Source: Bacilli bacterium
GTDB taxonomy: Bacteria > Bacillota_I > Bacilli_A > RFN20 > CAG-826
Direction: 5' to 3'
NCBI GenBank assembly: GCA_024408565.1
Contig: JAKSUW010000005.1
Span: 1-54,131, forward strand
DNA: 54,131 bases
Below the pieces are notes generated by a model. That model had not been told where the DNA came from, made no database searches, and worked only from the letters and a program-made list of their open reading frames with translations. Both the position numbers and the translations under genes were made by a program. This document shows positions 3,468 through 54,131 of this stretch, one piece after another; position 1 is the first letter of the stretch, and every line of letters starts with the position of its first letter.

Positions 3468-5227
3468 TAGAGTTCGCTCTCCTTTAATTGTGATAACGCG
3501 ATTTCGCGATAAATTTTACAAGTCTTTAAAAGTTTTTCGTGTTTCCCTAACCCGACCATTTTACCCTTATCGATAACTAAGATTTGGTCCGCGTTTTTAA
3601 TCGTGCCAATCCGTTGGGCCACAATAATAATTGTGGTATCTTTTAAATATTCTTTTAAGCCCTTCCGCACTAACATATCCGTTTTATAATCAAGCGCCGA
3701 GAAAGCATCATCAAGAATTAAGACTGGTGCATTTTTATAAATTGCCCGGGCAATACTAAGCCGTTGTTTTTGTCCACCCGAGAAGTTTGTTCCACCTTGG
3801 GCCACTTCGGTGCGCACGCCGTTTTTTAGGCGATGGACAAAGTTAGCCTGCGCCGTCTTAATCGCGTAGCGGAAATGCTTATCATCATCTTCGATTGCTT
3901 GATTACTACCATAGGTAATGTTTGATTTAATATCACCTCTAAATAAGATAGCCTTTTGGGTAGCAATCGAAATATTATCGGTAATATCTTTTTGGCTAAA
4001 TGATTTAATGTTTTCACCATCCAATAAAATTTTGCCTTTACTTACATCGTAAAAACGCGGAATTAAATTAATAATTGAAGATTTACCTGAACCCGTCGCA
4101 CCGATAATTGCAAAGGTGGTGCCAGGCTTAATCGTGAAATTAATATTCTTCAAACAAGGTGATTGGGCGTCAGGATAAGCAAAAGAAACATTTTTAAAAG
4201 TGACTTCACCACGAATCCGTGGATGTTTATTTTCTTTGGGATAAACAATACTAGTTTTGGTATCAAGGACTTCGTTAATCCGCCGCGCTGAAACAATGGA
4301 GCGTGGTAATAAAATAAAGATTAAGATGAGCATCATAAACGCGATAACGACTTGAAGAGCGTATTGGGTGAAAGCAGTCATATTCGCGATGATTTGAGCC
4401 CGTTCCGCCGCACTGGCGGGATCAGTTAACGGGATTTGATTAATTAAACAAGCGGCAATCCAATAGATGGCTAAAGTTAAACCACTCATACATAAAGTCA
4501 TCACTGGCATCATGACGCCCATTGCCCGTGAAGTGAATAAGTTATTTTCAGTTACCGTTTTATTAGTCACGCCAAATTTATTGGATTGATACTCTTCCGC
4601 GTTAAAGGCGCGAATAACGCGCACACCCGTGATGGTTTCACGCATCGCGTTATTTAAATCATCGGTTAATTTTTGAATCTTTTTAAAGCGCGGATAACAA
4701 ACTAGAACAATAAGACCAACACAAGCGATAATCACTAATACACAAATTAAAACCGCCATAGTCCATTCAATACTGGTCGAGGAAATTTTACAGACGGCCC
4801 AAATAGCTAAAATCGGCGCTTTAATTAAAACCTGCATGCCTAAGGCAATAAACATTTGCATGTTGACTACGTCATTCGTAGTCCGCGTAATTAAACTGGG
4901 GGTGGAAAATTTATTCATTTCCGCATCGGAGAACGAGGCAATTTGGTCATAAAGTTTACTACGTAAAGTCCGCGAGAAGTTAGCGGCGATGTGACTAGAA
5001 AAATAGCCAGTAGCAATCGCGGCACACATACTCGCAAACGCTAGACCTAACATAATCCCACCGTTAATCCAGACTTCGTTTTTATCCTGCTCGGCTATTG
5101 ATTCAGTTAACTTCGCTGTGTAATCAGGGATTGTTAAATCAAGGTAAACTTGTAAAACAATTAAACCAATCGCGATGATTAAAAAAGCGATGTCACGTTT
5201 TGATAGATGTTTAAAAATTTTTAACAC
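3467..5227 (-). CDS. Heterodimeric ABC exporter subunit (TMD+NBD), TM287/EfrA-like; GTG start
   Basis: GATGSGKS, FSGGQKQR, degenerate Walker B LILDD and switch VAQR. Confidence 0.92.
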   Translation of the reverse strand: MLKIFKHLSKRDIAFLIIAIGLIVLQVYLDLTIPDYTAKLTESIAEQDKNEVWINGGIMLGLAFASMCAAIATGYFSSHIAANFSRTLRSKLYDQIASFSDAEMNKFSTPSLITRTTNDVVNMQMFIALGMQVLIKAPILAIWAVCKISSTSIEWTMAVLICVLVIIACVGLIVLVCYPRFKKIQKLTDDLNNAMRETITGVRVIRAFNAEEYQSNKFGVTNKTVTENNLFTSRAMGVMMPVMTLCMSGLTLAIYWIAACLINQIPLTDPASAAERAQIIANMTAFTQYALQVVIAFMMLILIFILLPRSIVSARRINEVLDTKTSIVYPKENKHPRIRGEVTFKNVSFAYPDAQSPCLKNINFTIKPGTTFAIIGATGSGKSSIINLIPRFYDVSKGKILLDGENIKSFSQKDITDNISIATQKAILFRGDIKSNITYGSNQAIEDDDKHFRYAIKTAQANFVHRLKNGVRTEVAQGGTNFSGGQKQRLSIARAIYKNAPVLILDDAFSALDYKTDMLVRKGLKEYLKDTTIIIVAQRIGTIKNADQILVIDKGKMVGLGKHEKLLKTCKIYREIALSQLKESEL

Positions 5228-24230: not shown

Positions 24231-24551
24231 TTAGAATTCAGCTTTAAATAAACTAATAATATAACCCAAAGTTTTTCTATCCAAAGTTTCGACATATTGA
24301 TAGTGACGTGCATTTAAATCAAGTGAACGTACATGAGCGACCAAAACTTGACCCTTAATTTCGCCGCATTCGACATCAACTCGTAATGGATGAGAATGAT
24401 ATTTCGAAGTAATTGGTAACAATAATGCTAATCCGCCTGCCTTACGATTAAATATATCATTAGAAATAACTAGTGCTGGCCGCCGACCTTTTTGTTCATG
24501 CCCCTTAATAGGATCAAAATCAATAAAAATAATATCGCCTTGTCTTACCAT
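24231..24551 (-). CDS. MazF/PemK family type II toxin (endoribonuclease)
   Basis: QGDI..IDFDP..GHEQKGRRPALVIS, PITS, RSLD..AR. Confidence 0.92.
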   Translation of the reverse strand: MVRQGDIIFIDFDPIKGHEQKGRRPALVISNDIFNRKAGGLALLLPITSKYHSHPLRVDVECGEIKGQVLVAHVRSLDLNARHYQYVETLDRKTLGYIISLFKAEF

Positions 24552-24808
24552 TCTTCATTGCCTCGTTTCTTGCCCCAACTAACTTCACGCACTGGATCGT
24601 TTTTGATTGGACCATGTTCTTTTTCGTAATTAGAAAAAACGTCAGCCAACTTAATTTCGAGTTCTTCATATGCCTTTTCAAGCGTAATTTTGCTATTTGC
24701 CGTTTTAATTTCTAAATGATCACCAACTGATAAATCTAAATTTTTCAACACGCTAGACGGAATAATAACGCCTTTGCTATTGCCGAATTGAATAATTTTT
24801 GTATACAT
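24545..24808 (-). CDS. MazE/AbrB family antitoxin
   Basis: KIIQFGNSKGVIIP, C-terminal WG...G.EEW; overlaps the toxin start. Confidence 0.9.
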   Translation of the reverse strand: MYTKIIQFGNSKGVIIPSSVLKNLDLSVGDHLEIKTANSKITLEKAYEELEIKLADVFSNYEKEHGPIKNDPVREVSWGKKRGNEEW

Positions 24809-41426: not shown

Positions 41427-41738
41427 TTATAGTTTGATATCAATATCAACCCCACTTGGTAAGTCTAACCGTCTTAAAATATCGACAGTTTCCTTCGTTG
41501 GGTTAGTGATATCGATGAGCCGTTTATGGGTCCGAATTTCAAATTGTTCACGCGCGTCTTTATATCTATGGACCGCTCGTAAGACCGTATAAACTTGTTT
41601 ATCCGTTGGTAACGGAATGGGGCCAACAGTCGTCGCTCCAGTTTTCTTGGCCGCTTCTAAAATCTTCTCGGCCCCAAGATCTAAGATCTTATGGTCGTAA
41701 GCTTTTAAGCGAACCCGAATGATTTTTGCTTTTGCCAT
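41427..41738 (-). CDS. rpsJ: 30S ribosomal protein S10
   Basis: RLKAYDH, GPIPLPT, REQFE.RTHKRL. Confidence 0.98.
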
Positions 41739-41868
41739 GAAATTTCCTCCTTATTTTTACTTTTTTAGGCTATTACTTTCTTCGCTATAATCGAATTCCC
41801 TGGCCACCTTTCATGACAACGCCTATAGGTGTGTCAGCAACCTCGATTAGTCACCGCGAGTGCAAGTA
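41739..41868 (-). promoter_or_regulatory. S10 operon 5' leader (Firmicutes-type conserved leader RNA)
   Basis: Minus strand contains GAGGTTGCTGACACACC, which I recognise from Bacillus-type rpsJ leaders; AATCGA/TCGATT pairing arms; RBS AAGGAGG. Confidence 0.65.
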
Positions 41869-41873
41869 GGAAT

Positions 41874-41902
41874 AACATACTCCCTTTAAGGGTGAGTGTC
41901 AA
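41874..41902 (-). promoter_or_regulatory. Sigma-A promoter of the S10 operon
   Basis: Minus strand TTGACA-17 nt-TATGTT. Confidence 0.75.
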
Positions 41903-42165
41903 ATTATTCTTTTATAGACTAAATCTGAGTTCTTTATGTAAGTCATATAAAATTCATCTTCATCGTGACAATTAATAACTGATCTAATTTGATATTCTAA
42001 TATCGGAATATATGACTCTGGGTTTGAATTACCTATATCTAAGATATAGCAAGTATTACCGATTTCTATACCTTTCCGCTCAAAAAATTCCTTTATTTTG
42101 TTAAAATCATCGTTCCTAGCCCCATTTTCTGTGTCAGACAAATCATAGGATATCCCAATATGCAT
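41899..42165 (-). CDS. Small hypothetical protein, Cas2/VapD-like ferredoxin-fold candidate
   Basis: RBS AAGGAG; N-terminal strand ISYDL, helix, G..I.NTCYI pattern parallel to Cas2; 88 aa. Confidence 0.5.
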   Translation of the reverse strand: MHIGISYDLSDTENGARNDDFNKIKEFFERKGIEIGNTCYILDIGNSNPESYIPILEYQIRSVINCHDEDEFYMTYIKNSDLVYKRII

Positions 42166-42178
42166 GCCTATATCTCCT

Positions 42179-43087
42179 TCACTTAATTATCTCATCCCAA
42201 TCTTTAGGAAAACCTATATAGGATAAATTTAATACATTTGAATGCTTGCGGAAAATTGATTTAATTTGAAAATAAAAACTGTTCCAGTCAAACTTAAAAC
42301 TCTTTTCCATCATTCTTTTCAAAACCAATATGGATAAAAACAATCTAGGACCAAAATTAGGATCAAAGTATTTTTTGTCTTCATCAAATAGTAAAGGCGT
42401 TGTTTTCATAGGCATATTGTATAAACGGCAATAATGTGCACATTTATTTCTTATTTCTAATAAAGTAAGCATCCAGCTATATAATCTATCTGGCGAAATA
42501 CCAAATAAACTAGACACGCATTTTTTGTCCTTTCTTTTCATAATTCTGTATAAAGAAGATAGAGTCCCTAACGAAAATAATTCCGATGCCACCCAAATGG
42601 GAAATTTACCATTATATTTGCCAATATGATGCTTTACAAACGGTTGATCTTTTTGCCTACTTATTTCGTGATTTAAATTTTTCATTATATGTTCATGTAC
42701 AGTTTCATTAAGTTTATCTAGTTTAATCGGATTAAAGTTCTTTGGATTCAAGTATCCAATAGGACCATACGTAATGCCTAAAATATAAGAAATATGAGTT
42801 CTTAAATAAACTTCTAACGTCTCTATCTCTTTAATTAAAATGTTCCGTAATTTACTATCAAAAATATATAAATCGTAAAGAGTTTTAATAGACACGCCTT
42901 GGCGATATTCTTCTTTATTATCTGGCTTAGTAAGACCAGCGCCGTAGGCGGTTAAACGATAATAGTTTACTTTTTGGAGAATCTTAAGCGCGTTTTTACG
43001 ATTGGGGATGGTGAGTTTGTGAAAACACTCTAGGCGATCTAGTTGTTGCTCAAATGTTAGTGCATCTTTTAAACTCAATTTAGCCAT
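42179..43087 (-). CDS. Abi family protein (AbiF/AbiD, Abi_2), HEPN RNase
   Basis: LTFEQQLDRL, VNYYRL, LY.FD..LR, FPIW..EL.SLG.LS, RNKCAH (RxxxxH); start moved to ATG 43087. Confidence 0.92.
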   Translation of the reverse strand: MAKLSLKDALTFEQQLDRLECFHKLTIPNRKNALKILQKVNYYRLTAYGAGLTKPDNKEEYRQGVSIKTLYDLYIFDSKLRNILIKEIETLEVYLRTHISYILGITYGPIGYLNPKNFNPIKLDKLNETVHEHIMKNLNHEISRQKDQPFVKHHIGKYNGKFPIWVASELFSLGTLSSLYRIMKRKDKKCVSSLFGISPDRLYSWMLTLLEIRNKCAHYCRLYNMPMKTTPLLFDEDKKYFDPNFGPRLFLSILVLKRMMEKSFKFDWNSFYFQIKSIFRKHSNVLNLSYIGFPKDWDEIIK

Positions 43088-43095
43088 ATATGTGA

Positions 43096-43140
43096 AAAGT
43101 CCCACCCTGGTACGCATTGTTAAGAGGCGTGGTGGGCTCT
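43096..43140 (-). ncRNA. abiF-motif RNA (putative RNA antitoxin/leader)
   Basis: Minus strand AGAGCCCACCACGCCTCTTAACAATGCGTACCAGGGTGGGACTTT; CCCACC/GGTGGG stem with conserved-looking loop, directly upstream of the abiF-like gene. Confidence 0.75.
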
Positions 43141-43149
43141 GACGTAATT

Positions 43150-43178
43150 ATATTAGTATGGAAAATGTTAGGTGTCAA
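43150..43178 (-). promoter_or_regulatory. Promoter for the abiF RNA and gene
   Basis: Minus strand TTGACA-17 nt-TAATAT. Confidence 0.65.
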
Positions 43179-43246
43179 TACAATACATGCCAAAAAAATA
43201 TTAATCACGTTCCCGTCGCTTTTTTAACTATTACAAAGTAGTTACG

Positions 43247-44302
43247 CTATGCATAAACAATAGTCACTACACTTACTATGTTGCTTGCGAAATCCCATTT
43301 AAGAGCCACTTTATATTTGCTATTTCTATAAAAAATTGAAACATTGAAAATGATAATGAATGGGTCTTCTTTGCGTGCTGACATATGCGAAATTTGGTTA
43401 CTATTAATAGCGTTAGCAATCAATTGCTTTAATTCGTCTTTTTGGAAAACTATTTTCTTATTTTCCGATACGTACTTAAGTTTACTATCCGAGACATTAA
43501 TTTTAGGCATTTTGATATTTTTTATATCAAAATAGAAACAAATGGCGTACTTTAAGTCGTCTTTTAATGCCACTATCTGTTGTGGTCTCGCTGTTAAAAA
43601 AGTAATATAGTATAAATCGTTTATTGGGCATAATTTGAAATTGCCATTGGCAACTTTTACAAAAGTATAATTGCATTTGTCACCATCCTCTGCCACACTA
43701 TAAAGCAATTTTTTGCCGTCTTTGACAAAATTTTGTACTAAAAAATAAGTCAAAGCAAATTTTTCAATTGTAGGAAAAGTTATATTTTTTGAAAATAATA
43801 ATGCACCATTATTTTTAAACGCTTCTACAATTTTTTCTGCAGTTTTATCCGAAATGTTGCAAATTGCCAAAACACATATGTTATGTTTAAAAATAATATT
43901 AAAATCCACCCCGCTATCTTCGAAAATTTTCTTGTATATCCAAATTTTATTTTGATCAATAATTAAATCACCTGTTAAGAAGGCGCATTTAGATTTATCA
44001 TCGAGAACATTGATAGCTGTGTTAATAATCGGTTCAATATAATTACTTCGGGGTAAGGAATCAGAATTAAAAATAAACGCAAAAACATTTGTCGAAGGTT
44101 CAAGGGGCGCCCTTAATTCACTATAATTTATATCATAAGAAGATAATTTTTCTTTAAATTCGAAAAATAGTTTATTAATTAAATCTTTCTTAGTACTTTT
44201 AGGAAAAATACTCGATATGATTTGCAATACATCTGGATTTATTACATGAATGCTTTCCGAAACTTTTTTCTTGTTCATAGCAATATTACATCGTATAGAC
44301 AT
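43247..44302 (-). CDS. Hypothetical protein downstream of the OLD-family gene (alternative start 44278)
   Basis: 351-aa ORF 12 bp after the OLD gene; no motif I can assign. Confidence 0.75.
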   Translation of the reverse strand: MSIRCNIAMNKKKVSESIHVINPDVLQIISSIFPKSTKKDLINKLFFEFKEKLSSYDINYSELRAPLEPSTNVFAFIFNSDSLPRSNYIEPIINTAINVLDDKSKCAFLTGDLIIDQNKIWIYKKIFEDSGVDFNIIFKHNICVLAICNISDKTAEKIVEAFKNNGALLFSKNITFPTIEKFALTYFLVQNFVKDGKKLLYSVAEDGDKCNYTFVKVANGNFKLCPINDLYYITFLTARPQQIVALKDDLKYAICFYFDIKNIKMPKINVSDSKLKYVSENKKIVFQKDELKQLIANAINSNQISHMSARKEDPFIIIFNVSIFYRNSKYKVALKWDFASNIVSVVTIVYA

Positions 44303-44314
44303 ATAAAATTTTGC

Positions 44315-45619
44315 TTATTTTAACAGATTTTTAACTTCTTTTATTAAAGGATTTTCGCTGTTTAAAAAATCACTTACCATTTCTGCTATATCCATTTTTA
44401 TAGGAGAGTCATTATCTGCACCAATATCTTTATAAATATTCAACGAATGGCACTTGGCAAAGAAATCCGCCTTCGTCAAAGGGACGATGGTTGCATCAGA
44501 ATCAAACATTTGTCGATATGTATTAAGAGGAATATATAACTCTATACATTCTTTCGATAGTGAGTGCTCTTCGTCGCCTGAGTCTCCATCTTTAATGGTT
44601 TTACAGGTAAATCCATTGTGAATTAATTCTGATTTAACTGGTTCTATATTAGTATGACCGCCACATTGTATGACCAAATATTTGTTAGTTTCTCCAATAA
44701 TCTCAATGGCCTTTTTAATCCATTTCATATCAGTTTTACCCTCAACTAATACAAAAGTCTTTGTTTTTTCCACGCCACCCAAGTAACTATATAAATCAGT
44801 AATACTTTTCACATTATCGGTAAACAAAGGAACTACATCATTAATATCAGTTATTTTCATTATTTGTGTAGAATGAGTTGTTATTAAAGTTTGAGCAATT
44901 TTTTCTTTAATTGCAGCAACTAAATTCTCAACATTTTTATAGGAAAAAGAATTTTCTATCTCATCTATCCCGAGAATCACATTCTCATAATTTCCTGTAG
45001 TTAGCAAAGCATAAACTAAATTTTTTTGATATCCTGACCCGCGCCCTTCTAACGGAACCCCAGAACTATCTATGTTATACTTGATAGCCTTTTTAATATC
45101 GAGAGTTGAATTTGGCAATAAAGTTGTTGAATTGGCATTTTGAACAACTAACATTTTTCCGTCTATACTTTTCAAAATATCGTTTATCGCATCGTTAGCT
45201 GCATCAGTGATACTTTTGTCAGTTCCATCTCCAATTATTTTCTTTTCAACAATTGAGGATGCTAAATTCTCTAATATCTCAACAGGATTATCATTGTTAT
45301 ATGGAATATAGATATAAGATATCCCTTTTATATCCGCAATATTCATAGAAAGTTTTTCATCGAGTCTATAAGTTTTTCCTTTATAAACCTTTTTGATAAA
45401 TTTTTTCCCATCCGTAAAAATGCCAAACACCACCTCTTCATCTGGATTTCTAACAAAATCGGGATTTATTTTTTTGTCATTAAAAAATATATCTAGTGCT
45501 TCTAAAATGGTGCTTTTTCCAGAATCATTATCGCCAATGATAACATTATGTTTTTGAAAATAGATTGTTTTATCTTCGAATGCTTTAAAATTTTTGATAT
45601 AAATAGATTTTATTATCAT
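44315..45619 (-). CDS. OLD-family ATP-dependent nuclease (ABC ATPase + TOPRIM)
   Basis: I.IKNFKAF, GDNDSGKST, RGSG, IDEIENS, ITTHS; TOPRIM LVEGKTD, CGG, DGD. Confidence 0.85.
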   Translation of the reverse strand: MIIKSIYIKNFKAFEDKTIYFQKHNVIIGDNDSGKSTILEALDIFFNDKKINPDFVRNPDEEVVFGIFTDGKKFIKKVYKGKTYRLDEKLSMNIADIKGISYIYIPYNNDNPVEILENLASSIVEKKIIGDGTDKSITDAANDAINDILKSIDGKMLVVQNANSTTLLPNSTLDIKKAIKYNIDSSGVPLEGRGSGYQKNLVYALLTTGNYENVILGIDEIENSFSYKNVENLVAAIKEKIAQTLITTHSTQIMKITDINDVVPLFTDNVKSITDLYSYLGGVEKTKTFVLVEGKTDMKWIKKAIEIIGETNKYLVIQCGGHTNIEPVKSELIHNGFTCKTIKDGDSGDEEHSLSKECIELYIPLNTYRQMFDSDATIVPLTKADFFAKCHSLNIYKDIGADNDSPIKMDIAEMVSDFLNSENPLIKEVKNLLK

Positions 45620-45641
45620 ATATTTTGTTATCTCCTTATTT

Positions 45642-45674
45642 CATTATTGTATGCGACAATAATGCTATTATCAA
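45642..45674 (-). promoter_or_regulatory. Promoter of the OLD operon overlapped by a 9-bp inverted repeat
   Basis: Minus strand TTGATA-17 nt-TACAAT; CATTATTGT-N5-ACAATAATG at 45642-45664. Confidence 0.65.
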
Positions 45675-45814
45675 TGAAGGAAATCTACTAGAAACGAAGG
45701 CAGAAGATTCAAATAATCTCTTTTTACCTGCCACCCCTCGTTATCATTCGATGAGATGGGACTACTCGATGATAACTAAGTTATCATAGATTCTGTACTA
45801 TATATAGATTAATT

Positions 45815-45940
45815 AAAAATCTCCTACATATACTCCATATATAAAACTCACTATATATAAAGTATTATCTTAATAATCAAAACCCTGTTGTGCTAACTAG
45901 AGGGTACCCCACCACCCCATGATTGCGCAGCAATGATGGG
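45815..45940. repeat. Structured direct repeat, copy 1 (126 bp)
   Basis: Aligns with 46837-46963 with 5 substitutions and 2 small indels; contains hairpins ACCCT...AGGGT and CCCATGATTGC-N3-GCAATGATGGG. Confidence 0.93.
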
Positions 45941-45988
45941 TCACGCCCACATCTCACCGCTTTCTAATTCATAATCGATAAGCACCGA

Positions 45989-46780
45989 TTAATCGAACAT
46001 ATATTCGAGTGAACTATTATCATCTACTACATCAAGAATAGTTTCGTTCTTCTTTTGAAGTGTATAAGAGGTCTTAACCTTAAGGTTTTCTTTAATATAA
46101 CGAGACATTCTTCCTTTCGTGGGCGCCTTTAATAAATGTCCACCACTACCTAATACTTTTAAAGTAAAGACATACTTCCCTTTCTTCAAAATAATCTCAG
46201 TGGGACTAACTTTCTTTAATTTAACTAGATTATAAGTAGATAAATAATATTCATGATTATTGTTCTTAATAAAACAAAGAACGCCAATAAACTTAAAAAA
46301 CATGATCGGAATAGTGGCAATCGCTAAAGTAACCGTCTGATGATTGATAACTGAATTATACCAAACATACTTCTTCGGGAAATTAACCCCACGATCACCT
46401 TCAATATAACCCACTCCATGATTAAAACTATATTGTTTGTTATTATAAATAACACTACCTTCTAAAGTATGATACATCGAATAGATTTCATGCTTACATT
46501 CAAGCGGAAGAATACTAAATGGACCCATGACTCTTTTTCTTAGTGGATGTAGTTCGCCTAAGCTAATTATCCCTTCTAAAGACATATCTTCTTGTTTAAT
46601 CTTAAAATTAACCTTATTGTCAATTACTTTTACTGACTCTTTATCATTAATCACATGCGCTCCATCGTTAGTGATCACCTGTAACTCTGGACCATCATCT
46701 GAAGAACTAATAATAACCGCAAAAGAAAAACCATTCTCACTTACAAACTTATAATACTTACCAAAGAAATATTTTTTCAT
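45989..46780 (-). CDS. Tocopherol-cyclase-like family protein
   Basis: YFFGKYYK, MGPF..P.ECKH.IYSM.H, GYIEGDRG.NFP..Y.W; start at ATG 46780. Confidence 0.75.
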   Translation of the reverse strand: MKKYFFGKYYKFVSENGFSFAVIISSSDDGPELQVITNDGAHVINDKESVKVIDNKVNFKIKQEDMSLEGIISLGELHPLRKRVMGPFSILPLECKHEIYSMYHTLEGSVIYNNKQYSFNHGVGYIEGDRGVNFPKKYVWYNSVINHQTVTLAIATIPIMFFKFIGVLCFIKNNNHEYYLSTYNLVKLKKVSPTEIILKKGKYVFTLKVLGSGGHLLKAPTKGRMSRYIKENLKVKTSYTLQKKNETILDVVDDNSSLEYMFD

Positions 46781-46836
46781 TGCCTTAAATATTATCATAA
46801 CCCACCTACACTCATGTAATCATAATAAAACTAATA

Positions 46837-46963
46837 AAAAATCTCCTACATATACTCCATATATAAAACTTACTATATATAAGTATTATCTTAATAATCA
46901 AAAAACCCTGTTGTGCTAACAAGAGGGTACCCCATCACCCCATGATTGCATAGCAATGATGGG
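46837..46963. repeat. Structured direct repeat, copy 2 (127 bp)
   Basis: Near-identical to 45815-45940. Confidence 0.93.
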
Positions 46964-47282
46964 GCCGCCCCCCCTATACCTCTACCACTTCTTAAATTTA
47001 TGATAGATAACTAATTGAATTACCATATCTAACATCATCCTTATAAGTTAACAGTCGATAATCGATTAATGAATAAATAAGAGTCAGAAAAACTGTCATA
47101 TACCTAATATTAAAGAAAGAATCAGAGAAATCAATGCGGAAATTGAAGATGAGTGGTAACACCTATATTATGTAAACCAAACGAGTCATTTTAATATTTT
47201 TTATATTTATTCATAAATATATCCATTAAATATACGCAAAATGCCTCTTCCTTTTTACGTATGTAGTATTAGGAGGTATTTT

Positions 47283-47954
47283 ATGTTACAAAATAGTGAG
47301 GCTATTCAAAATCATGAGGAAGTTATCCAAAATAACACTCTTAGTGAAGATGAAGAAGATAAGGAGTTTGATCGCTTATTAACCGCTATTACGAGTATTT
47401 TAAATATCAAAGACTCTTGGTTTAGGTTCATCTTAGTTGATACATCTAATGGTAACAAGCTAGATGATGACTTTGCTATGCCATCCGGTATGGGTATTGG
47501 AGGCGGAAAGAAATATATTATCGCGATTGATGGAGAATTATGGACTAAATATATTGAAGAAACTAATCCAAAGATGAAAATAAAAAGATGTGCAGCATTC
47601 GTACGAGTTATCTCTCATGAATTTATGCATCTATATCAATTCAAGCATTCGTTTGATAAATACGCTAAAGAATTTTATTACGAAAAAAGCCTCCCTCACG
47701 ATCAAGATAATTGGAATTACCGGCAACATAAAAAATACATTAATCTTAGTATTGAACTTGAAGCCTATGCATTTGGACTACTTGTAGAATCTAAAATATT
47801 AAACAGAAAAAGAATAACCTATATCCCTTATGATATTAACAAATACCAATTCAGAAAAACTTATTTACAAATAAAATCTATCTACGAAAAGAAAATAGAA
47901 GAAGCATTTAATTTAAACAAAGAGGAAACCGACACTAAAGTTGTAAGGGAATAA
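47283..47954 (+). CDS. Zincin-like metallopeptidase-domain protein
   Basis: RBS AGGAGG before ATG 47283; HEFMH (HExxH) plus downstream ELEAYAF third-ligand helix. Confidence 0.7.
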   Translation: MLQNSEAIQNHEEVIQNNTLSEDEEDKEFDRLLTAITSILNIKDSWFRFILVDTSNGNKLDDDFAMPSGMGIGGGKKYIIAIDGELWTKYIEETNPKMKIKRCAAFVRVISHEFMHLYQFKHSFDKYAKEFYYEKSLPHDQDNWNYRQHKKYINLSIELEAYAFGLLVESKILNRKRITYIPYDINKYQFRKTYLQIKSIYEKKIEEAFNLNKEETDTKVVRE

Positions 47955-47974
47955 TAAGCGTATCCTAAACTAAG

Positions 47975-48023
47975 AAATTCCTATATATAACCATGTTGTG
48001 TAACAAGAGAGTACCCAATGATT
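47975..48023. repeat. Degenerate, condensed third copy of the island repeat
   Basis: aaccatgttgtgtaacaagagagtaccc (47989-48016) matches 26/29 of the copy-2 core aaccctgttgtgctaacaagagggtaccc; flanks aaattcctatatata and atgatt also echo the repeat. Confidence 0.7.
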
Positions 48024-48076
48024 AAAACTATATTTGGTTATTATAAATAACACTAAAATTTTCACAATAATTATGC

Positions 48077-48162
48077 AAAATGTTGGAAAAGTGCAAATAA
48101 TATAATGTAAAAATGTTGGAAAAATGCAAAAAAATAGCAAAAAAATGTTGGAAAAATGCAAA
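48077..48162 (+). repeat. Three phased 21-bp direct repeats upstream of the AAA ATPase
   Basis: AAAATGTTGGAAAA(G/A)TGCAAA at 48077, 48110 and 48142 (periods 33 and 32 bp), followed by TATAAT at 48170. Confidence 0.9.
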
Positions 48163-48197
48163 AATAATGTATAATAATGAGCAAAATAGGAGAAAAT

Positions 48198-49493
48198 ATG
48201 CTATTTAGAAAAGTTACAGATAAAATAGATAATTGGTATAAAAGCAACAAAACCGCATTGTTAATCGACGGCGCACGTCAAGTCGGTAAAACCACTATTA
48301 TTGAAGAATATCTTAATAATAGCGGCATAGATTATGTCGAATTTAATTTGTTTGATAACAAAATTGCCTGCAACGCATTTAATACCGCCATTGATGCCGA
48401 AGATCTATTACTTAAATTATCAGCAATTGCCAAAAAACCTATGACTAAAGGAAAAACTGTAATATTCGTTGATGAAGCTCAAGAGGCTGATGATGCAATT
48501 ACACCTATTAAATTTTTAGTAAAGAACGGCAGTTACCGTTTTATATTTTCTGGGTCTTTACTAGGGGTCAAAATGAAAGATATACAATCCATTCCGATTG
48601 GGTTTATGTCAGTTATTAATATGTATCCAATGGACTTTGAAGAATTCTTAATTGCTAATTCGGTTAATAAAGATACCATCGGATATTTAAAACTTTGCTA
48701 TCAACAATTTAAACCAGTTGATAGCGATATACATAGACAAATCATGAATATCTTTAATAAATACCTTGTTGTAGGCGGTTTGCCAAAAGCGGTTAAAGAA
48801 TATGTTGAAACTAATAACATTGATAAAGTAAGAGATGCTCAACGTGATGTCGATAAAGGCTATTTAATGGACGTTGCAAAATATAATTACGCTGAGAAAT
48901 TACTAATAGATGATATATATGAACTAATTCCCAGTGAGTTGAATGCCAAAAATAAGCGCTTTATCATTAAATCGTTAGATAAGAAAGCTAGATATTACAC
49001 TTATGAATCAAGTCTTGTGTGGTTAAAGAATAGTGCGATTGGTTTATTCACTTATACAGTCGATGAACCAGTATATCCACTTAGAGCGAGTGTTAAAAGA
49101 CAATTATTTAAGTTATTTTTATGCGATACCGGTTTATTAGTATATAAGTTAACTAAAAACACCGCCGCTAAGATATTAACTGGTCATATTAATATCAATT
49201 ATGGTTCAATCTATGAATCAATAGTCGCGCAAGAATTAACAGCGCATGAGATTCCTTTATATTATTACAACAACAAGAAGCATGGAGAGGTTGATTTCTT
49301 AATCGAAGACAATGATCAAATCATTCCAATCGAAGTAAAAAGTGGAAAAGACTACGATAGACACGTCGCATTAAACCAATTAATGAACATTGAAAATTAC
49401 CACATTAATAAAGCGTATGTTTTGTATAACGGAAATGGTGAGATTAAAGGTAAAAAAATATATATGCCAATCTATTTTGTGATGTTTATATGA
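48198..49493 (+). CDS. AAA_14 + DUF4143 family ATPase with C-terminal PD-(D/E)XK-like domain
   Basis: GARQVGKT, FVDEAQ, SGS, YPMDFEEF, GGLP, KLFLCDTG, EVDF...IPIEVKSG; RBS AGGAG before ATG 48198. Confidence 0.88.
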   Translation: MLFRKVTDKIDNWYKSNKTALLIDGARQVGKTTIIEEYLNNSGIDYVEFNLFDNKIACNAFNTAIDAEDLLLKLSAIAKKPMTKGKTVIFVDEAQEADDAITPIKFLVKNGSYRFIFSGSLLGVKMKDIQSIPIGFMSVINMYPMDFEEFLIANSVNKDTIGYLKLCYQQFKPVDSDIHRQIMNIFNKYLVVGGLPKAVKEYVETNNIDKVRDAQRDVDKGYLMDVAKYNYAEKLLIDDIYELIPSELNAKNKRFIIKSLDKKARYYTYESSLVWLKNSAIGLFTYTVDEPVYPLRASVKRQLFKLFLCDTGLLVYKLTKNTAAKILTGHININYGSIYESIVAQELTAHEIPLYYYNNKKHGEVDFLIEDNDQIIPIEVKSGKDYDRHVALNQLMNIENYHINKAYVLYNGNGEIKGKKIYMPIYFVMFI

Positions 49494-50984
49494 TTAAAAT
49501 TGACATTGATGAATTTATCAAGGATATTAATAACAATATCAAAAATTACGCTACGGATTATGAGCGAGTCGGCATTGACTTTAAAACCATCACCCAAAAT
49601 CAAATTAATATTCTTTACGAACGAACACTGTCCTCAATAACTAATTATTTTATCTATACCGAATTTCAAAAACTAAAAACCAATGTAGAATTATGGGCGA
49701 ACGAAACAAAAATACTTTTTGAAAACGGGATTAACGCTTTTGATTTTTCCGATTTAAAGAAAGAAGTAGGCTTAAAGTCAAAAAGTAAATCATATAGAGA
49801 AATGTGGAAAAATTATTGTGTGCCAGATGGCCTTTTTGTTATTAATGATATTATGTACGAGCCATTCTATCTATTTGTCGAGTACAAATTAAACCAAGAC
49901 TTAGTATATATTGATTTAGCATTAGATTACCTAAAATATAAAGCATACACATACAAAAGCCGTTTAAAGTCAGCCTTTGCATTTGTTATATTTGATAAAA
50001 ACGAAAAATATCCAACAATTATTAGTTCAAGTCCCCCGTATTTCCAAATACTAAACAAGACAATTTCGCCATCTATGGATATGGAAAAAAGGGTGTGCAT
50101 ATATAAAAATTTAGAAATTAAAGACGATGACAGTGATTTTGACTTCAACGAATTAAGTGACTCAATACAACAGTTTACCGAATTGTCTACTTTATCATCG
50201 GATATCCTATGTTACGAAGATAAAATCGGACTAATTGCAGACGATAATATTTTTATAAATTCTATGGAAAAGTTTAACAAGCGTATTATTAATGCTCAAA
50301 TTATTAGAGATAATTACAGTTACATAGTGGCTATGTGGAATGCTTGCGAAAAGAACAAAGTGTTTGATGATATTTATAAGGATTTTGATTTAAATTTTAA
50401 AGAAGAATTAACAGACGAAAAAATAATCGATGAAGGATCGCATTATTCTGCATGCTTTGATGAGAGCATTAATTTAAAGGCTAGAGTTCGAGCAATGGAG
50501 GACGGAATAAGAGGTTCTTCTTATGCATCTTTTAATGTAATAGTTCTCATTGATTATTTTAATAATTATTTTGGTATTGATAAAACTATTATTCCTATGT
50601 ATGGCAAAACAAAAATCGGAAGGAATATTAAAGAAAAAGAAGAAATAGATTTCAATAAAACAGCGATGGCACAAAAAGCAAAAATAGATAGACATTATGG
50701 AAATGACTTACAAAAAGGCAAAAAAATTAGAAAATTAACATATGCGTTAATGTATTACATAAAAAAAATTATATGAAACTATCTATGAGATAAATGAAAA
50801 TAATGCAATCGGAGAATATAATGAGGCCTATAAAAGCTATGTTTTAGCTGGTCAATTCAACGAAAAAATAGAAAAAATCAGTCGGCGTTTTAAATATACA
50901 AAACCAATAAAATTGAATATAAATTTAAGAAATACAAAAGCAGAGTTATTAAAACTAGTTGAACACATTATTACAAAAATATAA
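49490..50984 (+). pseudogene. Putative PD-(D/E)XK nuclease, frameshifted at an A8 tract (428 aa as read; 497 aa with A7)
   Basis: VPDG...FVEYK motif; ATGA overlap with the ATPase; removing one A at 50761-50768 extends the ORF by 71 codons to TAA 50982-50984. Confidence 0.65.
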
Positions 50985-50988
50985 ACAA

Positions 50989-51696
50989 CTACAAAATTAT
51001 TCTAATTTCGCGTGGTAAAGACCAAAAAACTTGATATTTATAATTATTTTGGTGTTTTAAAAAAGCATCATCAATTTCCTTTTTTATCTCATTTTTGAAT
51101 TCAGAGGGCAGGTGAATAATCAAATTACTAATACTACTAGTTAAGCCCTTCTTCATTTTGCCTTCTAGCATGGTAGTACATAAGTCTTTTTGATTAAGAA
51201 GAAACTTATTATGCCCGACTTTATTTCTGAGTGCCACTAAAGCTTTTTTATTCGCTTTTGTTTCAACATTCGGGAAAAGTGCAACAAAATCCTCGTCTGG
51301 TAAATGATATGCCACGTCGACTAGATTGCTAAAAAGATCATATGATAATAAATCAAATGTTTTATTGCTGTTTTTTGATAGTTTTCTTGCATCTTCTCCT
51401 ATAAATTTATTACATCCATTAGGCAAATCTTTCTCTAAAGAATACTTATTAGATATATAGGCCCGCATATTTTCTTCTAAAAAGCCCAAAAATTTATATA
51501 GTATCCTTCTAATACGCTTGTCATATCTCATTGTTGAAGCCACTTCACAATAAGTAGGGGTTCTATTTAGTTTCTTTTTGAGAAAATTAGCAACATTGAT
51601 ATGCTCTTGAATCCCGCGCCTGTCTAAATACACCTTAGCAGATTCTATCTCATCAGGTTCAATCTTAACTAATTTGAAAAAACTATCGTAATCCAT
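50989..51696 (-). CDS. Compact Abi-like HEPN domain protein
   Basis: RYDKRIRRILYKFLGFLEENMR (Abi_2-like) and LRNKVGH (RxxxxH). Confidence 0.75.
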   Translation of the reverse strand: MDYDSFFKLVKIEPDEIESAKVYLDRRGIQEHINVANFLKKKLNRTPTYCEVASTMRYDKRIRRILYKFLGFLEENMRAYISNKYSLEKDLPNGCNKFIGEDARKLSKNSNKTFDLLSYDLFSNLVDVAYHLPDEDFVALFPNVETKANKKALVALRNKVGHNKFLLNQKDLCTTMLEGKMKKGLTSSISNLIIHLPSEFKNEIKKEIDDAFLKHQNNYKYQVFWSLPREIRIIL

Positions 51697-52312
51697 ATTT
51701 TTGTTCTAGCTCATTAACCGTTTCTAGTAATAGGGAAAAAGAATCTTTATCTTTAGACCTATTTTTCTTTATTAAATATAACTCTTTAATTTCTACCCAA
51801 TATCCCATCCTTTTTAATTTAGTGAATCGTTCTTGGAAATTCTTAGATTTAGGTATTCTCCCCCATATGTATGCATTGTTTGGTTTATCATAGTATAATT
51901 TGTACCATTTATGATTCTTTTCATCATCAAACATTATTGCGAAATCAGCCGAATATCTATATCCATTAATCTTAAAATTATTACTCTTAATGGTAATAGC
52001 GGATGTTGAATCACAAACATGGGTGTCTTTGGGCAAGCATTCTCTAAATGCGTTCATAATTGTTAATTTGAATTTTTTGGCATCATTAGTAATACCGATT
52101 TTATCTTTTTGAATCATTAAGTTGTAATCTAAATCAATATGCCCATTAGAATCAACTGTAATTAAATTTCTTTTAGCGCTTCCAACGAGGTTGAAAGAAA
52201 AAGTAAATTGACATCTAACAATATTTTGGGTCTTTAAAATAACATTATCAAAATAATTAATTAATTTTAATCTAACTGCTGAAACATTTAAATAAGAATA
52301 GTTATACTTCAT
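51683..52312 (-). CDS. Pol-beta superfamily nucleotidyltransferase (compact SMODS/CD-NTase-like)
   Basis: hGS motif LVGSAKR, DLD, DSTSAITIK strand, third Asp in SADFAI. Confidence 0.7.
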   Translation of the reverse strand: MKYNYSYLNVSAVRLKLINYFDNVILKTQNIVRCQFTFSFNLVGSAKRNLITVDSNGHIDLDYNLMIQKDKIGITNDAKKFKLTIMNAFRECLPKDTHVCDSTSAITIKSNNFKINGYRYSADFAIMFDDEKNHKWYKLYYDKPNNAYIWGRIPKSKNFQERFTKLKRMGYWVEIKELYLIKKNRSKDKDSFSLLLETVNELEQKYGLR

Positions 52313-53360
52313 TTCTATAATGTTTCAAATGTTGCTTTATAGATCTTCCGATAACTTGTCCTAGTTTTACAGGAACAGCATTTCCTATATGTCTAGCAAT
52401 TGTATTCATTGAAAAAGGAATTTTTGGATCAATAAAATTATATTTTTTTGGAAAAGTCTGAAGAATAGCCCCCTCTCTTAAAGAAATCGCTCTATTTTGA
52501 TTTGGGTGTCCGAATCTTCCTGTACCATAACTATAAAATTCTGTAGTAATAGTAGGCCCAATTTTCCCCCAACTCATTCTTCCATAAACAGAAGAATAGG
52601 TGATGCCAGACTTTTTTTTGTGGCAACTGCATAATAGTGACTTTGGCCAATCTTTCCAAGTCCCCCCTTGTTTGGAGGCTTTAATACGCATTAAGTTCTT
52701 TTTAGACAAAGCAGCAGATCGATGTAGTGGATCTTTTGGATATATTTCGCCGGCTTCTATCGGCGGCATGTTACATATAAAAGAATTTATATTTACTTTT
52801 TTTCTATCATGAGTCGGCTTGATTAAATCTATATTACCTAATTTTGATGCCAATAAAACGAATCTGTGCCTATTTTGTGGAATTCCATAATCTGGACAAT
52901 AAACCACTTCTCCGCCACTTGTATAATAACCATTATCATTAAGAATACTGACAAAGTCTTTATATACATTAGTTTTTCTTATAGCAGGAACGTTTTCCAT
53001 AGAAATAATGGTAGGCTTTAATTCTTTAACTATTCTTCCAAATTCCATAAGCAAATCATATTTATCATCACTTTCTCGAGGCACATTCTTAAAACGCTTA
53101 AAACTCATATTTGAAAAGGGTTGGCATGGTGCACACCCAACCAAAATATGAATAGATTTTGGTGAATAATACTTTTTTATATCATTTCCTCTAACAAAAC
53201 GAATATTTTTGTTAACAAATTGAGTTTTATTATTATGCTCATAAGCATATTTACATGTTGCATCATTGTCAAAACCTGCAATAACTTTTAAACCGCTTCT
53301 TTTTAATCCGCAAGTTAAGCCGCCTACTCCGCAAAACAAATCAACAACTTCTATATCCAT
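52302..53360 (-). CDS. DNA (cytosine-5) methyltransferase
   Basis: DLFCGVGG (I), GCAPCQPFS (IV), MENV (VI), PQNRHR (VIII), LREGAILQTFP (IX), IGNAVP (X). Confidence 0.95.
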   Translation of the reverse strand: MDIEVVDLFCGVGGLTCGLKRSGLKVIAGFDNDATCKYAYEHNNKTQFVNKNIRFVRGNDIKKYYSPKSIHILVGCAPCQPFSNMSFKRFKNVPRESDDKYDLLMEFGRIVKELKPTIISMENVPAIRKTNVYKDFVSILNDNGYYTSGGEVVYCPDYGIPQNRHRFVLLASKLGNIDLIKPTHDRKKVNINSFICNMPPIEAGEIYPKDPLHRSAALSKKNLMRIKASKQGGTWKDWPKSLLCSCHKKKSGITYSSVYGRMSWGKIGPTITTEFYSYGTGRFGHPNQNRAISLREGAILQTFPKKYNFIDPKIPFSMNTIARHIGNAVPVKLGQVIGRSIKQHLKHYRNEV

Positions 53361-53482
53361 ATTTTGTGTTCATTAACAAGAATATCATAGCACTTATATT
53401 TTTTGAATATAACAATATTAAAAAATATTTGTATATTTCAGTATACAATGTGTTATTGTTAACATATATAGGGGATTTATTC

Positions 53483-54131
53483 ATGATGAACAAGAAATAT
53501 AAATTGGAGATTGATCCGAGAATTTTAACCGTTTTAAGCCAAAATTTATATTCTAATCTTTACTATGTTCTGTCCGAACTTATTGCTAATGCTTATGATG
53601 CTGACGCGCATAATGTCTATATTAAAATTGATAATTCTACTGTGATTGTTGAAGACGATGGTTGCGGCATGAACAATGATGAAGTAGATAAATATTTAAT
53701 TGTTGGAAACGAATCTAGGAATAGCGAAGCGAATGCAAAAACTAAATTAGGGAGAAATAAAATTGGCAGAAAAGGGATTGGAAAACTTTCCGCATTATCT
53801 ATTTCTACAGAATATAAATTATTAACGAAACAAAATGGCGTTACTAATGGTTTTATTGTTAGAAATAATATAAAACGCGATGAATATCTAACATCAATTG
53901 AAGTTAAGGACGAAATGTTTGAATTTATTAAAGAAACCAAAACTGGAACTAGAGTTGAAATATTTAATGCTAATTTCCAATTTAACGATGATATAGATAT
54001 AATTGCTAAGAATATATTAAAGATATTCCCTATTCTTTCAAAAGACTTTAAACTCAATATATTTTACAAAGATAAACATAAAGTTTTGCAAAATTATGAT
54101 GAAGAAATAATTCAACAGTTATCAACTTTAA
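53483..54131 (+). CDS. MORC/GHKL ATPase (HATPase_c_3), probable restriction component; 3'-truncated by the window edge and not in the ORF track
   Basis: Manual translation MMNKKYKLEIDPRILTVLSQNLYSN...SELIANAYDADA...EDDGCGM...GRKGIGKLS...GTRVEI; frame stays open to the window end. Confidence 0.88.
   Translation, partial: MMNKKYKLEIDPRILTVLSQNLYSNLYYVLSELIANAYDADAHNVYIKIDNSTVIVEDDGCGMNNDEVDKYLIVGNESRNSEANAKTKLGRNKIGRKGIGKLSALSISTEYKLLTKQNGVTNGFIVRNNIKRDEYLTSIEVKDEMFEFIKETKTGTRVEIFNANFQFNDDIDIIAKNILKIFPILSKDFKLNIFYKDKHKVLQNYDEEIIQQLSTL

Follow-up and report, generated by a model that had tools for sequence, protein, structure and literature searches.

A 139-nt direct repeat around a single gene in a Bacilli defence island: candidate remains of a local tandem amplification

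Tandem gene amplification, along with the segmental duplication remnants that it leaves, is a general mechanism in bacterial chromosomes. The chromosomal integrons of Vibrio carry highly similar repeats of ~120 nucleotides (nt), and the Correia elements of Neisseria are small intergenic repeats that alter the expression of neighbouring genes. According to an excerpt of PMC4889954, clusters of attC sites lacking integrases (CALIN) are known, Firmicutes included, and none of the Firmicutes and Tenericutes genomes studied had a complete integron. The dif (pdif) modules of Acinetobacter plasmids, as excerpts of PMC6449649 and PMC13141974 describe them, are bordered by 28-bp XerC/XerD sites and rely on a recombinase encoded outside the module. 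A literature search, judged from its listings, brought up no description of integron-like cassettes in Firmicutes or of repeat-flanked single-gene defence cassettes. Here we analyse a structured repeat in a 54,131-nt stretch of an uncultured Bacilli bacterium (contig JAKSUW010000005.1, assembly GCA_024408565.1; hereafter the window), in which two full copies flank one gene, designated gene A, and a decayed third copy follows the next gene, which encodes a protein with an HExxH motif. A first-pass annotation, made by a model from the sequence alone, had proposed a recombination or gene-capture site, a mobile element, or a repeated non-coding RNA or portable promoter that builds the surrounding island. 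In our judgement there is about an even chance that the repeat is instead the decayed remains of a local tandem amplification, the unit of which, of ~1022 nt, comprised gene A and its 3' intergenic region.

Copy 1 of the repeat (45810..45948, 139 nt) has the leader of an OLD-like ATPase gene on one side and the 3' end of gene A on the other; copy 2 (46832..46970, 139 nt) begins 33 nt from the ATG of gene A (46798), on its upstream side. The two copies are 92.2% identical over 141 aligned columns (blastn, E 1.3e-51), have uninterrupted identical runs of at least 23 nt in common and stand at a start-to-start period of 1021-1023 nt, as determined by a direct-repeat search. The near-identical repeat of ~126 bp described in the first-pass annotation is therefore present in two full copies, with its length corrected to 139-141 nt, and the single-gene units at ~1 kb spacing are borne out, as copies 1 and 2 bracket gene A only. 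A 28-nt core occurs twice in the window, and none of 100 shuffles contained any match to it. Homology between copies 1 and 2 ends sharply at both edges: the left flanks align with a score of 16.0, identical to the shuffle mean of 16.0, the right flanks with a score of 22 (shuffles 17.8 ± 2.7, shuffle maximum 29), and the right flank of copy 2 is unrelated to that of copy 1. The third, eroded copy that had been noted is real, yet extends over only 32 nt of the HP1 region (47989..48019; blastn 87.5% identity, E 7.6e-4) and is fused to a fragment of gene A. A covariance model of the GC-rich half retrieves copies 1 and 2 and, weakly, copy 3 (13.8 bits, E 0.017), in which the stem is disrupted and which lacks the segment that holds a promoter-like -35 box in the two full copies. 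The three copies share one orientation and span 2.2 kb, the distance between cores being 1023 nt for the first unit and 1085 nt for the second.

The fragment joined to copy 3 (48018..48055, minus strand) is a pseudogene stub of a second copy of gene A, designated A', that matches the interior of gene A at 46418-46457 (blastn, 92.5% over 40 nt, E 8e-10). The stub has suffered a 2-nt deletion and is frameshifted; its minus-strand translation, SVIYNN../..YSFNH, corresponds to gene A residues 115-120 (SVIYNN) and 124-128 (YSFNH). Copy 3 and the stub meet inside a run that the repeat and gene A have in common: this run reads CCATGATT both in the full repeat, where it marks the start of the second hairpin, and in gene A, and CAATGATT (that is, AATGATT) in copy 3, so that the first position of CATGATT is changed in copy 3 and ATGATT is common to all three. 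Such a shared run at a join is the signature of a microhomology deletion. Because A' is fused to copy 3, a second copy of gene A must once have adjoined copy 3, arranged and oriented just as gene A now is with respect to copy 1, and "gene A plus repeat" was once present at least twice, which argues for duplication of a gene-plus-repeat unit rather than for independent cassettes. The repeat thus travels with gene A in two of three cases, and the duplicated pieces have diverged to a similar degree (92.2%, 92.5% and 87.5% identity). A profile search for decayed gene A between copies 2 and 3 found none, all other hits having independent E-values of at least 2.

If the repeat arose by tandem amplification, it would be an ordinary intergenic segment that was copied head-to-tail along with gene A, and no dedicated recombination site. 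Read on the minus strand, the unit of ~1022 nt would have consisted of 33 nt upstream of gene A, gene A itself, 40 nt and the 139-nt segment. Head-to-tail amplification is supported by the period of 1021-1023 nt, which equals gene A plus its flanks, and by the left edge of copy 2, which adjoins the 33 nt preceding the ATG of gene A, as expected of a head-to-tail junction. At least three units would once have stood in the order A'-rep3, A''-rep2, A-rep1. The middle gene, A'', and part of rep3 would later have been overwritten by a foreign segment with the HExxH gene, while A' and rep3 would have been trimmed by deletions, one of them joining the ATGATT run of the repeat to the same run inside gene A; at least three deletions would have shortened the outer unit. 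Amplification followed by such decay explains the period, the junction at copy 2, the stub A', the similar divergence of the pieces and the absence of the block elsewhere. The copies with their sharp borders, the period, the stub, the hairpins and the lack of other copies in the data searched are observed; we infer from the sequence the order of events, the terminator and promoter activities discussed below and the lost middle copy A''.

Each full copy is composed of an AT-rich half and a GC-rich half, the latter with two hairpins, HP1 and HP2. In folds of single-stranded DNA and of RNA, HP1 of copy 1 (45882..45905; ACCCT-G-TTGT / ACTA-G-AGGGT) has one stem pair broken by a T/A change, and HP1 of copy 2 (46905..46928) has an intact stem of 5+4 bp with a G.G mismatch and the loop GCTA. 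HP2, recovered by the same folds and by the covariance model, has a stem of 10-11 bp with a central G.G mismatch and the loop GCA in copy 1 (45915..45941), and a stem of 6+5 bp with a G.G mismatch and the loop ATA in copy 2 (46938..46964). Both hairpins fold on either strand with one central G.G mismatch each (C.C on the minus strand). They had been described as separated by a spacer: both do fold in both copies, but the supposed spacer, GGGTACCC, overlaps the 3' arm of HP1 and leaves no separate spacer. The earlier observation that the HP2 loop differs (GCA versus ATA) while the stem is kept is correct and carries little weight, as 0 changes in 22 stem positions would be expected about 1 time in 6 at 8% divergence (our estimate), and hence does not amount to covariation. 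HP1 of copy 3 has two changes that are not compensatory, and among the three copies, which provide two informative sequences, no compensatory change was found in any stem. On the plus strand the folds are more stable than those of shuffled sequences in both copies (z-scores -5.3 for copy 2 and -2.6 for copy 1), whereas on the minus strand this holds for copy 2 (-3.0) and copy 1 folds no better than shuffles (+0.28). Within the 30%-GC island only three stretches of at least 40 nt reach a GC content of 60% or more, namely an abiF RNA and the GC-rich halves of copies 1 and 2.

Transcripts of gene A would end, on the minus strand, in the GC-rich half, where HP2 is followed by HP1 and its T-run. 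HP1 is followed on this strand by TTTT in copy 1 or TTTTTT in copy 2, and a single hairpin with a T-run ends at least 10 gene A homologues among 36 loci inspected, so that a terminator is usual at this position. The AT-rich half would restart transcription on the same strand through a TTGATT box, a spacer of 18-19 nt and a TATAGT box, together with an AT-rich dyad, seen clearly just in copy 1; in copy 2 the promoter-like TTGATT-18-TATAGT site stands upstream of gene A (46872..46901, minus strand, 9/12 matches), and the equivalent TTGATT..TATAGT site of copy 1 lies at 45850-45880 (minus strand) with a 19-nt spacer. An AGGAG follows beyond TATAGT on the minus strand in the AT-rich half of each copy. 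The duplication would have given the surviving gene A a copy of this promoter-like half immediately in front of it. As the repeat is sharp-edged and structured and stands at the borders of single genes, the description as a "portable terminator/promoter" suits it. The elements of the promoter and ribosome-binding-site-like half in the first-pass annotation (TTGATT..TATAGT..AGGAG) are therefore present, but sites of this kind occur at chance density. We also considered the AT-rich dyad as an operator and set this candidate aside, as its fold is unconvincing in copy 2 (z -1.6, versus -2.6 in copy 1).

Searches for further copies and for relatives of the arrangement were run in the window, in representative genomes and around gene A homologues. 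Beyond copies 1, 2 and 3 the other 52 kb of the window contain no repeat by core match, blastn or covariance model. A scan for the exact 20-base HP1 core, a pattern with which copies below ~95% identity are mostly missed, returned 0 matches in 185,579 species-representative genomes, the genome of the window not being among them, and copy 1 with its flanks had no blastn match in 72,556 plasmid and 50,697 phage records. We then compared the repeat with the best 80 of 408 loci of gene A relatives in species-representative genomes (up to 10 kb on each side, 1,200,390 nt in total). Around these 80 homologues the GC-rich half gave only chance-level matches of 13-18 nt (blastn, E 7.3), the best blastn match overall (29 nt, E 3.3e-4) fell in the AT-rich half, and the two-hairpin covariance model produced one hit with an E of 1.5. 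At the Rfam gathering threshold only abiF was detected in the whole window and the repeats were without a match; at E <= 10 the region 45600-48200 yielded two weak hits (E 2.7 and E 8), both inside coding regions and none in the repeats, so that the Rfam family check suggested for the repeat came out empty. An ARAGORN scan for tRNA and transfer-messenger RNA genes, bearing on an origin as an att site, found 0 genes. As far as the window, the representative genomes, the 80 loci, plasmids and phages were searched, only these copies exist, the outcome that the first-pass annotation itself had named as speaking for a one-off duplication.

The gene A homologue is single-copy in all 80 loci, and none of the 80 has direct repeats bracketing it within ±3 kb. 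Inverted pairs span the homologue in three of them (L010, L028 and L075); in L075, inverted repeats of 82 nt (73-154 and 3599-3680, 91% identical) enclose a 3.5-kb segment with the homologue. At another locus (L014:8198-8995) the homologue is found inside an open reading frame (ORF) of 591 codons and may be a fused form. Different species mostly have unrelated genes next to gene A. None of S10, L3, the OLD-like gene and the HExxH gene accompanies it in any locus (0/80 each), AbiF, PDC-S01, a 428-aa ORF and the methylase do so in 1/80 each, and no homologue lies within 10 kb of S10 or L3. We also considered the many short contigs (~0.9-1.4 kb) with gene A homologues as collapsed multi-copy units, but these proved uninformative, as contigs of the S10 cluster are similar (4/14 below 1.6 kb).

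Several observations weigh against a tandem amplification. The lost middle gene copy is a postulate, as no remnant of gene A was detected to the right of copy 2, which has the look of a solo copy with sharp edges. The second unit is interrupted in its homology (none in the profile search, flanks at shuffle level), and a later replacement event must therefore be assumed. The second unit is also near the first in size (1085 versus 1023 nt), as would be seen in a cassette array. Promoter-like sites occur at chance density in this AT-rich stretch (20 found, 17.5 ± 4.6 expected), and a terminator scan found no canonical terminator. Moreover, the GC-rich outlier status of the repeats and their better-than-shuffle folding on the plus strand suggest selection for structure, beyond a neutral leftover. 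The core scan was narrow, being confined to 20 exact bases and leaving out the window's own genome, and the arrangement is untraceable in relatives because the nearest relative of the OLD-like protein is only 46-47% identical.

Of the other explanations, a functional structured RNA or cis-regulatory element, in which the twin hairpin would act, much like the abiF motif, in RNA, for example as a 3'-end stabiliser, a processing site or a small RNA, allows for an origin by duplication and appears to us rather unlikely. It accommodates the GC-rich outlier status in common with the abiF RNA, the z-scores of -2.6 and -5.3 (plus strand) and -3.0 (copy 2, minus strand) and the HP2 stem that is unchanged while its loop differs, but it has to contend with HP1 being broken in copies 1 and 3, the minus-strand z-score of +0.28 in copy 1, the lack of any Rfam match at E <= 10 and of any compensatory change in two informative sequences, and a promoter scan that found no good plus-strand promoter upstream of the hairpins. 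In an exchange of modules by homology, the repeat (terminator plus promoter) would serve as portable homology for RecA recombination or transformation, so that single defence genes would be added, lost or swapped without a dedicated recombinase. We hold this to be unlikely. The arrangement does have the form of a product of circle integration at a repeat (Campbell-type), identical runs of at least 23 nt could support homologous exchange at low frequency, and the island is a patchwork of defence genes (AbiD/F, an OLD/AriA-like ATPase, PDC-S01, a methylase with a restriction enzyme) with a GC content of 30% versus 41% in the core; on the other hand, donor copies would be needed elsewhere and none was found in representative genomes or the 80 gene A loci, and from one locus such exchange looks the same as plain unequal crossing-over after duplication. 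Insertion three times over of a non-autonomous intergenic repeat with promoter and hairpins, resembling the miniature inverted-repeat transposable elements (MITEs) or Correia elements, is very doubtful. A length of ~140 nt, an intergenic position, sharp borders, a promoter-like box and hairpins resemble what is seen in such elements, but terminal inverted repeats are absent (none of 17 inverted pairs in 44000-50000 links the ends of a copy), there is no target-site duplication (flanks ...TATAGAT|copy 1|ATCTCAC... and ...ATAAAAC|copy 2|CCTATAC...), the copies all sit within 2.2 kb and face the same way, the other 52 kb of the window containing no copy, no transposase is encoded among 43 scanned window proteins, and the linkage of copy 3 to a piece of gene A indicates that the unit that moved was larger than the repeat. 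An assembly artefact, in which strain variants would have been laid in series, is scarcely credible: although the window is one contig of an uncultured, metagenome-assembled genome and another assembly contains a 95%-identical variant of gene A, the copies show 8% divergence and their flanks are dissimilar to the left and to the right, and one full gene A next to a frameshifted, truncated stub indicates decay, not a collapsed or doubled haplotype.

A site-specific cassette border, used by an integron-like or hairpin-recognising (single-strand) system that is encoded elsewhere and delivers ~1-kb single-gene circles with one repeat each, is decidedly unlikely in our view. Repeat-bounded segments of 1023 and 1085 nt with one gene or gene remnant each, the sharp edges of the copies and two hairpins with one central mismatch each, reminiscent of strand-selective folded sites, are what it would lead one to expect; a gene between direct copies would be the product of circle integration at a resident copy; and attC clusters without integrase are known, including in Firmicutes (excerpt of PMC4889954). 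The spacing used to call CALIN (at least two sites within 4 kb on one strand) is likewise seen here, with two copies and a remnant in 2.2 kb. However, there are no R''/R' boxes: searching 45700-48150 on both strands by regular expression, we found no pair of RYYYAAC / GTTRRRY attC boxes at a spacing of 35-135 nt, and single boxes of this type occur only outside the repeats at 46219/46225 and 47027/47033. Nor does one long bulged hairpin pair the ends, as it does in attC; the repeat folds as two separate short stems of 9-11 bp and the ends of the 139-nt block are unpaired. These results agree with the first-pass annotation, which had described the array as lacking canonical attC and as no standard integron. 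One half of the repeat is AT-rich and has no structure, the third border is imprecise because copy 3 has no recognisable left part, and the stems show no compensatory change. No recombinase or transposase domain, and no IntI tyrosine recombinase by the array, was detected in the 43 window proteins scanned, a set that leaves out the ribosomal-protein-sized ORFs at 30.6-40.6 kb and is bounded by the end of the window at 54131, in line with the earlier remark that no recombinase was in view; no further copy emerged anywhere searched, and complete integrons were missing from every Firmicutes and Tenericutes genome of the study excerpted above (PMC4889954). In its boldest form, for which we see only a very slim chance, this reading would posit a cassette system so far undescribed, in uncultured bacteria of Bacilli/Erysipelotrichales type, with the 139-nt block as its recombination site; a recombinase encoded elsewhere would recognise the two hairpins with their mismatches, perhaps in the form of folded single strands, and insert ~1-kb single-gene circles. 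Of the recombination or gene-capture site, or mobile element, that was said to build the island, what stands is a repeat that is real, sharp, structured and located at single-gene borders; none of the tests run gave support to the proposed role.

Gene A (45989..46798, minus strand) encodes a protein of 269 aa that is predicted to be an all-beta double barrel like AttH, kievitone hydratase and tocopherol cyclase; its conserved part begins at an ATG at 46780. The first-pass identification as tocopherol-cyclase-like agrees with a Pfam match to Tocopherol_cycl (PF14249, 33.8 bits, E 2.6e-8), and the weak Pfam hit is in turn consistent with the predicted structure (all-beta, mean predicted local distance difference test score 89.3), the fold of which appears to match kievitone hydratase, the Fsa2/Phm7 cyclases and AttH (Foldseek E 1e-7 to 8e-9; 7a0q at E 7.7e-9, AttH 2ich at E 1e-7). 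The protein has 226 homologues at E <= 1e-3 and no PADLOC match. Its family is widespread in gut and rumen Bacillota, with 408 relatives in species-representative genomes, and the strain variant in another assembly differs at 14 of 269 residues (95% identity); two further close relatives from metagenome contigs are 76% and 74% identical. The second cargo gene (47283..47954, plus strand, 223 aa) points in the opposite direction, as had been stated, and its product contains the HExxH motif and downstream glutamate that led to the label "zincin". The family of this protein is rare, a search of 1.84 billion proteins giving 12 representative clusters at E <= 1e-3, and conserves H112, E113, H116, the downstream glutamate and an ELEAxAF block; one relative on a metagenome contig is 83% identical. 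Pfam, PADLOC and NCBIfam have no match to it, and a fold search gave 0 matches at E <= 0.001, the best being ArdC (6i89) at a non-significant E of 0.99. The ORF could begin 14 codons earlier (47241), but 47283, preceded by AGGAGG and used by the homologues, is probably the true start. Compared with its two closest relatives the protein has ~10 extra C-terminal residues, which would fit a recombination junction near the 3' end. Both cargo genes are thus far uncharacterised and reside in the defence island as single genes.

The island begins where the core genes of the window (1-41738; ABC transporters, a pyrimidine operon, rpoA and ribosomal-protein operons) end with S10 at 41427-41738, and its GC content drops to 30.1% (41739-54131) from 41.0% in the core. 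It encodes AbiD/F, an OLD/AriA/GajA-like ATPase-TOPRIM protein with a 351-aa partner, gene A, the HExxH protein, a PDC-S01 ATPase and a cytosine methylase with a restriction enzyme. Next to copy 1, the OLD-like gene forms a two-gene unit (43247-45619) of a 434-aa ATPase with OLD-like TOPRIM domain (best PADLOC matches AriA and GajA) and the 351-aa partner, which has no Pfam, PADLOC or NCBIfam match; the pair may be an unclassified OLD-family defence system. The OLD-like gene has a promoter match of its own (45674-45646, 10/12) that is better than the site of the repeat and nearer to the gene's start, and the closest relative of its product is 46-47% identical; the gene thus probably came in later and was not the one that the promoter of the repeat originally served. 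Between this gene and copy 1 lies a 190-nt stretch (45620-45809, minus strand) that folds well (z -2.8 for 45620-45850), with a palindrome at 45766-45790 and, ahead of the promoter match, a GGCAG...CTGCC hairpin followed by TTCGTTTCT. Rfam has no match to this stretch at E <= 10; it may function as a leader or attenuator, or encode a small RNA.

Further features of the window touch the repeat less directly. Downstream of copy 3, the PDC-S01 ATPase gene is immediately preceded by three copies of a ~32-nt unit (AAAATGTTGGAAAAATGCAAAAA...) at 48077-48166, which overlap the best match to a promoter of this gene (48148-48175, TTGGAA-16-TATAAT) and have the appearance of repeated binding sites, either operators or of the iteron type. 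The abiF RNA motif RF03085 (43100-43136, 44.7 bits) overlaps by 18 nt the listed start at 43117 of AbiD/F (Abi_2), and the true start of the AbiD/F gene (region 42179-43136) may lie further downstream; an 88-aa ORF of no known family is located between that gene and the S10 operon. At the far end of the island (52302-54131), a cytosine-5 methylase gene (352 aa) is divergent to the gene for a BbrUII/HgiDII-family restriction enzyme with a GHKL ATPase N-terminus, which is truncated by the window end at 54131. In the core region, a MazF/PemK toxin gene (106 aa) and an overlapping upstream ORF of 87 aa (24231-24808) presumably constitute a type II toxin-antitoxin pair; they are flanked by the pyrimidine operon and a GH43 gene.

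If the repeat is indeed a duplication remnant, the locus offers a small worked example of defence-island turnover, with amplification, foreign overwriting and microhomology deletions, and it would illustrate how a gene can acquire a promoter when an intergenic segment next to it is duplicated, which is useful but ordinary. The implications would be different for a cassette system: each circle would bring its own terminator and promoter, defence islands would be built gene by gene, and there would be an integron analogue in a phylum without complete integrons. Were the same block to border other single genes genome-wide, it would point to a mechanism of gene capture in Bacillota, where integrons are essentially absent.

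Set beside the described systems, the locus resembles integron attC arrays and the CALIN of the excerpted PMC4889954 in its ~1-kb single-gene units, its structured and similar repeats of ~130 nt and the lack of an integrase nearby, and departs from attC arrays in having no RYYYAAC/GTTRRRY boxes, two short hairpins instead of one long bulged one, an AT-rich promoter-like half and an uncultured Bacilli host. With the Correia/MITE-type repeats it has in common an intergenic sequence of 100-150 nt with a promoter-like box and hairpin potential by the starts and ends of genes, but it possesses neither terminal inverted repeats nor target duplications and comprises three clustered copies rather than many dispersed ones. 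An end of an IS200/IS605-type element or a PATE would call for subterminal hairpins together with TnpA/TnpB or a matching omega-RNA; the repeat has hairpins with a mismatch, and there was no transposase in the scanned proteins and no Rfam match at E <= 10. Small gene modules between recombination sites that are moved by an external recombinase, the cassette reading of this locus, recall the pdif modules in the excerpts cited above, although a chromosomal direct repeat of 139 nt takes the place of 28-bp XerC/XerD plasmid sites. Like the abiF RNA (RF03085, 43100-43136), the repeat is a GC-rich structured element by a defence gene in a 30%-GC island, but the two match in neither sequence nor structure, and abiF is a single 37-nt element 5' of its gene. 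Compared with remnants of tandem amplification, finally, the homology of the second unit is broken and its middle gene replaced by the unrelated HExxH gene, whereas the head-to-tail period equal to the gene and its flanks, the direct repeats around the surviving gene, the equal divergence and the truncated, frameshifted second copy are all as in such remnants.

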